Shown here one piece after another: positions 58,500-60,435 of a stretch of DNA of 64,000 nt. The notes under the pieces are model-generated. The model was given only the letters and a program-made list of their open reading frames with translations. It was not told where the DNA came from and made no database searches. The translations under genes and the position numbers were made by a program. This DNA is from Dehalococcoidia bacterium (GTDB lineage Bacteria > Chloroflexota > Dehalococcoidia > GIF9 > DYGU01), in NCBI GenBank assembly GCA_042408205.1, contig JBHOQK010000024.1:18708-82707 (forward strand), in the 5' to 3' direction. Numbering within the stretch: position 1 is the stretch's first letter; the number at the start of each line of letters is the position of its first letter.

Positions 58500-58532
58500 T
58501 ACCTGAAAATATCAATCAAAAAACCACCCCCT

Positions 58533-58571
58533 GCCAAAAGCCACCCACCCCCGGGTGGCTTTTGGTATTTT
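58533..58571 (+). terminator. Intrinsic terminator after ftsZ
   Basis: Stem GCCAAAAGCCACCC / GGGTGGCTTTTGGT followed by ATTTT. Confidence 0.75.
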
Positions 58572-58641: not shown

Positions 58642-58670
58642 TTGACAAAAGATTAAAAATGATATATACT
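58642..58670 (+). promoter_or_regulatory. Sigma70 promoter for the T-box/trpB2 transcript
   Basis: TTGACA-N17-TATACT. Confidence 0.8.
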
Positions 58671-58689: not shown

Positions 58690-58970
58690 GTAAAGGCTGA
58701 GAACAAGACTAGTACACCTCAAAGCGGAGCTACAGAGAGTCGGGATAGGTGAGAGCCGATGCTAGCGCAGAGGTGGAATGGACTTGGGAGCCGCAAACCG
58801 AAAGGGAAAATACCCGAGTAGGCTTTGACGCAAGGGTAGCGTTATCACAACCCAGGGTATCGTCCTGAAATCAGGACCGTACCTATAACGAGATGGCTGA
58901 AAAAGCCAAGAAGGGTGGCACCGCGAAGGTAAAAAACCTCTCGCCCCTTACGCGAGAGGTTTTTAATTTT
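58690..58970 (+). ncRNA. T-box riboswitch, Trp specifier (transcriptional)
   Basis: Stem I with AGTA, AGAGA and GGTGAGA motifs; specifier GAA-TGG (TGG at 58779-58781); T-box AAGGGTGGCACCGCG at 58911-58925; terminator AAAAACCTCTCGC...GCGAGAGGTTTTT. Confidence 0.93.
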
Positions 58971-58983
58971 AAGGAGGGTAACA

Positions 58984-59016
58984 ATGTCAACTATGTCATG
59001 GACATGGCGTTCATAA
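58984..59016 (+). CDS. Putative Trp-containing leader peptide MSTMSWTWRS
   Basis: SD AAGGAGGG at 58971-58978, ATG at 58984, two TGG codons, TAA at 59014-59016. Confidence 0.7.
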   Translation: MSTMSWTWRS

Positions 59017-59079
59017 GGAAAGGCTGGAGCTATTTTTGACTAAGCTGATTTTAAAAAATAATTAAGTTAAGGAGGAAAA

Positions 59080-60435
59080 ATGAAATTTACTAAATTTATG
59101 TTAACAGAAAAGGAAATGCCAACTCATTGGTATAACGTCTTGGCTGACTTGCCTGAGCCATTACCACCTTTGCTTCACCCAATGACCCACGAGCCTACAA
59201 TCCTGCCACCACCTCTTTTCCCAAACGCCCTTAATGAGCAGGAATTTAGCCAAGAGCGCTATATTGAAATACCTGAAGAAGTTCAAGATATTTATAAAAT
59301 GTATCGTCCGACGCATCTTCACCGAGCTTACCGCCTGGAAAAGGTCTTAGGCACACCAGCTAAAATTTTCTATAAGTACGAAGGAACTAGTCCAGCAGGA
59401 AGCCACAAGCTTAACACAGCTGTAGCCCAAGCTTACTACAACAAAAAAGAGGGGGTAAAACGGCTGACTACAGAAACTGGAGCTGGGCAATGGGGAAGTG
59501 CTTTAGCCTTAGGTTGTCGCCTGTTTGATTTAGAGTGCAAAGTCTATATGGTGAAAGTTAGTTATTATCAGAAACCTTACCGACGCATTCTTATGGAGGC
59601 GTGGGGCGCTAATGTAGTACCCAGCCCCAGCCCCGACACCAATATTGGCCGGACTATATTAAGCCAAGACCCCGATTCGCCCGGCAGTTTAGGAATTGCC
59701 ATAAGTGAAGCTGTTGAAGATGCTTTTAGCCGAGATGATACTAAATATTCCTTGGGTAGCGTTCTCAACCATGTCTTACTCCATCAGACTATCATTGGCC
59801 AAGAAGCCAAAAAACAGATGGAAAAAGCTGATGCCTATCCAGATATTATTGTTGGCTGTATTGGGGGTGGCAGTAATTTTGCTGGCCTCTTTCTCCCCTT
59901 TATACCTGATAAATTAAAGGGGAAGAAAATAAAAATTATTGCGGTAGAGCCTGAAGCTTGTCCCAGTGTTACTAAAGGAATTTATACTTGGGACTACGGT
60001 GATGTTGCCGGACTGGCACCATTAGTCAAAATGTATACTCTGGGACATACTTTTATTCCACCTAAGATTCACGCCGGTGGACTTCGTTATCACGGTATGG
60101 CACCAATAATTTGTCATCTCTATCGTCTTGGGCTTATTGAGGCAAGAGCTGTCCACCAGATACCAGTTTTCAAAAGCGCTGTCGAATTTGCCCGAGCTGA
60201 AGGCATTATCCCAGCTCCAGAGCCTTCCCATGCTATAAAAGTAGCTATTGACGAAGCTCTAGCCTGCAAAGAATCAGGAGAAAGCAAAACGATTCTTTTG
60301 GCTCTCAGTGGACATGGTCATTTTGACCTTCAAGCTTATGACGAATACCTCAGTGGGAAACTCGAAGATTATGAGTACCCCAGAGAACTGGTAGCAGAAG
60401 CTCTATCCCATCTGCCCAAAGTAGAGATAAAGTAA
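59080..60435 (+). CDS. trpB2: Tryptophan synthase beta chain, TrpB2 type (stand-alone)
   Basis: [46 protein letters not shown]. Confidence 0.94.

Follow-up and report, generated by a model that had tools for sequence, protein, structure and literature searches.

A conserved Trp-codon leader open reading frame in series with a Trp T-box upstream of trpB2 in Dehalococcoidia, and its possible role as a second tryptophan check

The trpB2 gene of a Dehalococcoidia bacterium (assembly GCA_042408205.1, contig JBHOQK010000024.1, positions 18,708 to 82,707; this whole stretch of 64,000 nucleotides (nt) is called the window) is preceded by a tryptophan (Trp) T-box riboswitch and, directly behind it, by a short open reading frame (ORF) with two Trp codons, termed here the mini-ORF. 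Comparison with related leaders suggests that the mini-ORF belongs to a conserved group of trpB2-associated Trp-codon leader ORFs that lie in series behind a Trp T-box and are read by the ribosome as a second check on Trp, an interpretation favoured here with modest confidence. The sensor is well supported by the conservation of these leaders, and the output step is one that we only infer from their anatomy.

An earlier note, made from the letters of this stretch, had described a Trp-specifier T-box with its terminator, a strong Shine-Dalgarno (SD) sequence and a 10-codon ORF with two TGG codons at 58984-59016 upstream of trpB2, and each of these features is found where it was placed, on the forward (+) strand. 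The T-box leader (58690-58951) matches the full length of the Rfam covariance model RF00230 (model positions 1-219 of 219; 107.4 bits with a gathering score of 93, E 2.1e-23). The specifier loop reads GAA-UGG-A at 58776-58782, with the Trp codon UGG at 58779-58781 followed by a purine as the T-box rule requires, and the T-box sequence GGGUGGCACCGCG lies at 58913-58925 with its UGGC bulge at 58916-58919. The antiterminator pairing was taken from the RF00230 alignment; the terminator (58932-58969) appears in the minimum free energy fold as a 13-bp stem (58932-58944 paired with 58952-58964) and a U-rich tail. Six bases past this tail is the SD of the mini-ORF, AAGGAGGG (58971-58978), which stands 5 nt before the ATG, a spacing kept in relatives. 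The mini-ORF (58984-59016), which reads MSTMSWTWRS followed by a stop, begins at ATG 58984, 15 nt after the U-rich tail, and has TGG at codon 6 (58999-59001) and codon 8 (59005-59007). Its stop lies 52 nt before the trpB2 SD (AAGGAGG, 59069-59075) and 63 nt before the trpB2 start codon at 59080, and the distance from the last Trp codon to that start is 75 nt. Between stop and SD is an AT-rich spacer of 52 nt (59017-59068; 10% C, 19% G) with no significant structure. The trpB2 gene itself (59080-60435, + strand) encodes a TrpB-like pyridoxal phosphate enzyme of 451 amino acids that scores above both NCBIfam cut-offs (NF009057, 729 bits with a cut-off of 366; TIGR01415, 665 bits with a cut-off of 519).

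The distribution of these elements was followed in the assembly carrying the window (G000; 1.18 Mb, 32 contigs, 95.7% complete, such that a gene not found in it is not proven absent) together with 60 relatives of the same order, from which all T-box matches were retrieved (L and G followed by a number denote loci and genomes, respectively). A T-box was found in 58 of the 61 genomes, with 75 matches in total; the core is present in 74 of the 75 retrieved stretches, L075 being a 269-nt fragment, and the specifier column reads TGG in 73 of these 74, with CGC in L038. The 74 T-boxes precede trpB2 in 44 cases, trpE in 28, another gene in one (L038) and a contig end in one (L024). The 44 trpB2 leaders were classed partly by hand from their sequences, and 33 of them possess a strong SD, a short ORF, an in-frame TGG (in most cases codon 8 or codon 6) and a GC hairpin of 5-9 bp that starts exactly at this codon; these 33 span 19 genera and four of the five families sampled. 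In contrast, none of the 28 trpE leaders has a Trp-containing ORF (W-ORF): there the gene starts directly after the terminator, 59-88 nt from the T-box core. This contrast supports the proposal in the earlier note that the T-box is followed by a second Trp sensor, one read by the ribosome. More specifically, conservation had been set beforehand as the test on which that proposal could fail, and both the ORF and its Trp codons proved to be conserved in related trpB2 leaders.

The other trpB2 leaders of the set depart from this pattern in several ways. Two retain the W-ORF without a strong hairpin (the window and L044), one retains the hairpin with a broken frame (L029), four have a strong SD and a tiny ORF without Trp (MS-stop or MF-stop; L032, L034, L035, L052), three have a strong SD and an ATG with a stop codon right behind it (L069, L071, L073), and one has a strong SD followed by MMQDT-stop (L063). 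Relative to L027 (genome G005), L029 (genome G057) has a single-base deletion early in the mini-ORF that takes the TGG off the Trp frame and leaves the hairpin intact; this frameshift could be either a true loss or an assembly error.

Wider sampling gave a similar picture. When the set was pooled with named records of metagenome-assembled genomes (MAGs), 75 unique leaders running from T-box to trpB2 were obtained, of which an automatic rule called 40 as W-ORF with hairpin; ten more belong to this class by inspection, the rule having picked the wrong ATG or misplaced the terminator. A partly independent replicate from metagenome contigs added 26 new leaders of this kind: 15 with W-ORF and hairpin, one with a start codon followed at once by a stop, and ten others, some of which are degenerate W-ORFs (for example L175, L204 and L207). 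The beginning MSTMSW.W recurs at the same place across several families (the window, L070, L009, L046, L158, L110 and L193). In L046 (contig C22 of G002, same family as the window) an insert that measures about 190 nt and contains GC-rich inverted repeats separates the SD from the ORF encoding MSTMSWSWPREGQR; it is possibly a repeat element or a small mobile one. An apparent ORF with Trp at codon 2 in L159 was set aside, since L159 probably continues L024 and the ORF would then be an artefact of the contig end; a genuine ATG-TGG variant does exist in L180.

The anatomy of the family was described from an alignment of 54 leaders anchored on the hairpin TGG, the window and 53 others, and its hairpin figures are descriptive only because these 53 were chosen for having a visible hairpin. 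Within it, the TGGC of the hairpin is invariant, stems measure 5-9 bp, loops measure 3-7 nt, and the mean stability is -12.1 kcal/mol. At stem position 4 the pair is C-G in 46 leaders and G-C in seven, which is a compensatory two-sided change. A comparable hairpin occurs at 5.2% of 2,384 other TGG sites in the same loci. In 49 of the 54 leaders the hairpin TGG shares its frame with the start codon lying 4-11 nt 3' of the strongest SD, and in two the frames differ. This TGG is the eighth codon in 30 leaders, the sixth in 14, the ninth in seven, and the seventh and the thirteenth in one each (the L098 row of this count being misassigned to a long upstream frame). Two or more Trp codons are present in 22 of the 54 mini-ORFs, mostly as W-x-W or WW just 5' of the hairpin; beyond the anchoring codon there are 23 Trp per 874 mini-ORF codons, compared with 0.98% in the long ORFs of the same loci.

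The peptide is variable apart from the recurrent MSTMSW.W, and the residues that follow the last Trp (P, G, R, A) are what they are because the GC stem dictates them. Thus the likeness that had been noticed between the W-T-W-R-S end of the window's peptide and proteobacterial TrpL does not hold up as a family trait, relatives continuing as WP or WR according to their hairpin. The distance from Trp to the stop codon is likewise variable (6-87 nt). The distance from Trp to the trpB2 start is fairly constant (median 76 nt, interquartile range 70-82.5), with a median of 51 nt from stop to start, and the spacer is about 70% A+U and unstructured. The UGGC at the foot of the hairpin consists of the same four bases as the UGGC bulge with which these T-boxes pair with the tRNA 3' end; we take this coincidence to be probably a consequence of placing a Trp codon in a GC stem.

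From these features the complete module was defined: a short ORF behind a strong SD lies about 60-100 nt 5' of trpB2, its codons 6-9 include a TGG, and a GC hairpin of 5-9 bp starts from the last TGG. The window's mini-ORF agrees with this definition in SD, ORF and Trp codons and departs from it in the hairpin: it is the sole row of the 54 without one (-2.9 kcal/mol) and gives no match at E <= 1 to R1, a covariance model of the TGG-hairpin region. The window copy is therefore an atypical, hairpin-less member of the family. Its closest relative is the leader type of L070/L078, whose TrpB2 is 88% identical, the best value among the nearest TrpB2 records, which are MAGs assigned to Dehalococcoidaceae, Dehalococcoidales or Dehalococcoidia; no relative of the same genus was found in the metagenome contigs, where the best TrpB2 match has 82% identity. 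Compared with L070/L078, the window retains the SD, the frame and MSTMSW.W, the GC stem has become AT-richer sequence, and the ORF stops two codons after the last Trp. The hairpin has been lost and the W-ORF retained also in L170, L207 and L044. This form is compatible with either a residual function of the ORF alone or slow decay, and because the hairpin is lost, the window copy keeps at most the parked-ribosome half of the device described below.

Uncharged tRNA-Trp stabilizes the antiterminator of Trp T-boxes, and as a first step it would in this way allow transcription to proceed past the terminator at 58932-58969. As a second step, which we infer from anatomy and conservation, a ribosome would load at the strong SD and would have to decode the UGG codons at positions 6 and 8. 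When charged tRNA-Trp is scarce, this ribosome would stall at UGG, some 75 nt 5' of the start of trpB2. Its A site would then hold UGG, about nine bases downstream from the start of that codon would lie inside the mRNA channel, and the 5' arm of a hairpin at this place would be held single-stranded. In most of the relatives the predicted stall site is the 5' base of the GC hairpin, and a stalled ribosome would keep the hairpin open, while passage and release of the ribosome would let it re-form. The parked ribosome and open hairpin would then represent the ON state, and the closed hairpin a negative, Trp-replete element for trpB2. The hairpin is read as the negative element and the parked ribosome as its relief because leader variants with only a start-stop or two to three codons are without the hairpin, whereas nearly all W-ORFs have it.

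Premature termination, pausing, and mRNA cleavage and decay are candidates for the effect of the closed hairpin. G000 encodes Rho, as do 58 of the 61 genomes of the comparison set, and RNase Y is present in G000 (700 bits), where RNase J gave no match over the cut-off and RNase E/G was not found. Given these proteins and the unstructured, A+U-rich spacer, Rho- or pause-dependent termination and RNase Y-dependent decay are both possible.

The W-ORF and hairpin also occur without an adjacent T-box. Besides the leaders already known, a search with R1 revealed a copy in G040 (L158) between the end of trpA and trpB2, 6 kb downstream of the operon's T-box, that encodes MSTMSWSWPQEGQEQFQSH, and the metagenome loci L170, L228 and L180 likewise carry the module between trpA and trpB2. 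In L103 the ORF stands straight behind a promoter-like TTGACA-17-TAATAAT, and a T-box was not found in the 1,200 nt upstream. A longer model, R2, matches at least five of 151 genomes across the class, four of them in the window's order, a lower bound since copies of the GGCGCC type escape the model. The module is also carried by two records titled Atribacteria or Atribacterota (L129 and L144) and by metagenome contigs L233 and L244, the mini-ORFs of which resemble these. In G160, which belongs to another family, a Trp T-box (partly masked by N), a W-ORF (MLIMLNRWWPLWGPKK...) and a hairpin precede not trpB2 but a gene for a 387-amino-acid carbon-nitrogen hydrolase-like protein (L165, contig C3, about 1450-2892), whose weak matches to amidase, formamidase and nitrilase families all fall under the cut-off.

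Because the ORF and hairpin are found without an adjacent T-box, they look like an autonomous module tied to trpB2. That they are found within operons and directly after promoters tips the balance slightly toward an output step that is independent of the T-box and of the 5' end. It is tentatively possible that the module is a terminator-less, trpB2-specific Trp attenuator, unlike trpL, rtpLP, tnaC or ermC, in which a ribosome is parked at the foot of the hairpin by a hungry UGG, or constitutively in the start-stop variants, so as to gate expression of the indole-salvage enzyme, and which would work equally behind a T-box, between trpA and trpB2, or behind a promoter.

The start-stop variants form a class of their own. 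Many trpB2 genes, with or without a T-box and often right after trpA, are preceded by a strong SD and a bare start-stop pair (ATG and then at once a stop codon) about 50-60 nt 5' of the start, which is the position of the W-ORF; these include L082, L088, L093, L095, L116, L117 and L124, L069, L071, L073 and L114, and 11 metagenome loci (ten without and one with a T-box). Tiny ORFs of the form MLW-stop (ATG-TTR-TGG-TGA; L183, L188, L191 and L192), which have one Trp codon just before the stop, link the start-stop and W-ORF classes. In L180 the ATG-TGG lies within the stem itself (AUGUGGC..GCCACAU), and L090 has ACG in place of this ATG together with a matching change in the opposite arm, such that the stem is kept and the start is lost.

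Several results weigh against a second, ribosome-read check. Every specific output mechanism that was computed is negative in these predictions. Folding with and without a ribosome footprint, which the earlier note had suggested as a check, was run on 51 leaders and speaks against sequestration of the trpB2 SD in the manner of ermC as a general mechanism: the partition function gives an SD accessibility of 0.62 in the free leader, 0.62 with a ribosome at the Trp codon and 0.63 with a ribosome at the stop (Wilcoxon p 0.58 and 0.47). RNAalifold found no conserved long-range pairs in 46 leaders, a weak negative since the MAFFT alignment leaves the hairpins out of register. The spacer of the family is A-rich, with 15% C and 14% G and C exceeding G in 25 of 54 leaders, and is thus not rut-like. 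The +1 and -1 frames of the mini-ORF are not conserved as open across the family; a regulated frameshift at the hungry UGG was accordingly rejected, since the +1 frame, which in the window reaches 14 nt before the trpB2 start, ends at scattered positions in the family (median 37.5 nt). The hairpin figures are, as stated, descriptive, and the covariation rests essentially on one stem position and on changes in stem length. Furthermore, eight of the 44 T-box leaders of trpB2 have a strong SD and a tiny ORF without Trp, which implies that a ribosome-loading site without Trp codons is also tolerated, and the window copy itself may be decaying. The possibility that the hairpin arms pair with the terminator of the T-box was also considered by eye and dropped, as GGCGCC-type hairpins occur without a matching change in the terminator.

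If the window copy is indeed decaying, it would be a relic of an element that works elsewhere: its lineage has lost the hairpin, and the ORF would regulate nothing beyond what the T-box does. The hairpin-less row, the missing R1 match and a leader that folds no better than shuffled sequence agree with such a relic, as does the existence of other degenerate copies, namely L029 with its frame broken by a 1-nt deletion, L204 with its TGG replaced and its hairpin decayed, and L207 with its hairpin broken; TrpE (PF00425) and TrpA (PF00290), moreover, were not found in the 95.7% complete G000. However, nothing in the ORF itself is broken, since AAGGAGGG with its 5-nt spacing, the start codon, the reading frame and the two TGG codons are intact, and the first eight codons match those of relatives from other families (MSTMSW.W in L070, L009, L158 and L193), which is unexpected for 33 neutral nucleotides in a spacer drifting toward AT. 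Hairpin-less W-ORFs also recur independently (L170, L207, L044), and this recurrence suggests that the ORF alone retains some use. Decay to a relic is judged unlikely. The W-less leaders raise another explanation, in which the element is a Trp-independent site for parking a ribosome about 50-75 nt 5' of trpB2, whether as a shield against nucleases or Rho or in aid of coupling, with TGG kept mainly as part of the UGGC of the hairpin. An SD with ATG-stop or a W-less ORF of two to three codons is indeed found at the same distance both in T-box leaders (L032, L034, L035, L052, L069, L071, L073, L114) and in trpB2 loci without a T-box (for example L082, L088, L093, L095, L116, L117 and L124, and ten metagenome loci, nine of them new), and L090, which has ACG where L180 has the start ATG, keeps the stem through a compensating change. 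Parking of this kind does not account for the extra in-frame Trp outside the hairpin in 22 of 54 leaders (W-x-W or WW), for the Trp codons retained after hairpin loss in the window, L170 and L207, for the MLW-stop form of some start-stop-type ORFs (L183, L188, L191, L192), or for the frame kept in 49 of 54, and it is considered improbable.

Two further alternatives were weighed. The inverted repeat at the TGG of relatives, such as TGGCCC-N4-GGGCCA, is nearly a perfect palindrome, and its symmetric changes (GGCGCC/GGCGCC) would fit co-evolving half-sites of a DNA operator for a dimeric regulator, with the ORF incidental. This is very improbable: loops of 3-7 nt and stems of 5-9 bp vary in a way that disallows the fixed half-site spacing of an operator, the repeat keeps a fixed register with the SD and an in-frame start, and the explanation is inapplicable to the window, which has no such repeat. 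That a short frame with two TGG codons arose by chance after a purine-rich stretch is scarcely credible; short ORFs are common in intergenic DNA and the window alone would be insufficient to rule this out, but dozens of genomes carry homologues of the ORF at this position and conserve both its frame and its SD spacing, which already contradicts it.

A second Trp check read by a ribosome invites comparison with known systems. T-boxes and leader peptides are usually alternative amino-acid sensors, and the only studied case known to us of the two in series, also the nearest precedent for the window, is that of rtpA in Bacillus subtilis, where the stop of rtpLP reportedly adjoins the rtpA SD and the terminating ribosome is said to block that SD sterically. 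As in rtpA, a Trp T-box would control transcription of trpB2 and a short leader ORF with Trp codons would provide a second, ribosome-read check. According to PMC2311275, RtpLP has three Trp codons and its complete translation prevents translation of RtpA. Unlike in rtpA, the Trp codons of the window do not follow one another directly, a hairpin at the last TGG belongs to the family, the target is trpB2 rather than a regulator, and the module also occurs free of a T-box. The steric block cannot apply to trpB2 because the mini-ORF stop is 52 nt from the SD (family stop-to-start median 51 nt). The earlier note had likewise reasoned that the second step must differ from rtpLP, having seen no further terminator, and this was borne out: a scan of 58966-59080 found no terminator-like site between the T-box terminator and trpB2, and the same region folds no better than its shuffles (z = -0.04).

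Classical trp attenuators (proteobacterial trpL and the Corynebacterium and Streptomyces leaders) resemble this family in having a short ORF with regulatory UGG codons in the 5' arm of a hairpin, and leader peptides with double or triple UGG are described in PMC1262725. They differ in that no GC-rich poly-U terminator or alternative antiterminator lies downstream of the ORF in the window or its relatives, whose hairpins have no U run after them and thus show no second intrinsic terminator; the only terminator is that of the T-box, upstream of the mini-ORF. The suggestion that the mini-ORF is a relic of a classical attenuator therefore found no support, as no 2:3/3:4 alternative or terminator was seen in any relative. 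Terminator-less leaders with a proposed action through Rho (Escherichia coli tnaC, candidate cys leaders of Mycobacterium) share an ORF with regulatory codons, no intrinsic terminator and the presence of Rho, and are unlike this family in its A-rich, not rut-like spacer with C about equal to G. In tnaC it is reportedly free Trp that is sensed, at the stop codon; in the present family, by contrast, the conserved feature is an internal UGG, and the distance to the stop is variable. In drug-induced translational attenuation of the ermC type, a ribosome that stalls on the leader ORF covers the 5' arm of a hairpin and thereby melts it, and the freed arm re-pairs so as to release the downstream SD. 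A stalled ribosome would open the hairpin here as well, yet the predicted accessibility of the trpB2 SD is unchanged. For cys leaders without terminators, including Mycobacterium candidates, Rho has been proposed (PMC1262725).

A T-box before a "trpB-like" gene in Dehalococcoides has already been published, and the term "leader peptide" does not occur in the accessible text of that paper (PMC2494555). A literature search, which mostly did not cover subscription journals and supplements and could thus have passed over an earlier mention, returned no description of an element combining a T-box with a trpB2 mini-ORF. Genomes of the Dehalococcoidales type conserve the combination of T-box and W-ORF across at least 19 genera, and a few records of Atribacterota have it too, with an architecture that cannot work like rtpLP. 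If functional, it would constitute a second independent example of two-tier sensing of tRNA-Trp, in which uncharged tRNA is read by RNA and charged tRNA by the ribosome, and would offer a tractable example of control by the ribosome in which neither a terminator nor sequestration of the SD takes part. The chance that it is a new kind of terminator-less attenuator is fair. It would also mark trpB2, a gene of indole salvage, as unusually elaborately controlled in organisms that may depend on external indole.

The genome carrying the window is consistent with such a dependence. One T-box and one TrpB homologue, trpB2, were found genome-wide in G000, and TrpB2 may be its sole route to Trp, from indole; this gene set would make the supply of Trp dependent on indole salvage or uptake. 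A T-box of an isoleucyl-tRNA ligase gene, reported for Dehalococcoides in PMC2494555, was not found in the RF00230 search of G000.

The trpB2 unit lies downstream of mraW-ftsA-ftsZ, as assigned by Pfam. The unit is bounded upstream by the intrinsic terminator of ftsZ (58532-58567, + strand), which has a 15-bp stem and then a run of T. Between this terminator and the T-box, about 20 nt 5' of the latter, is a promoter-like site (58642-58670, + strand) consisting of TTGACA, a 17-nt spacer and TATACT, a consensus match only, in which 11 of 12 positions agree with the consensus.

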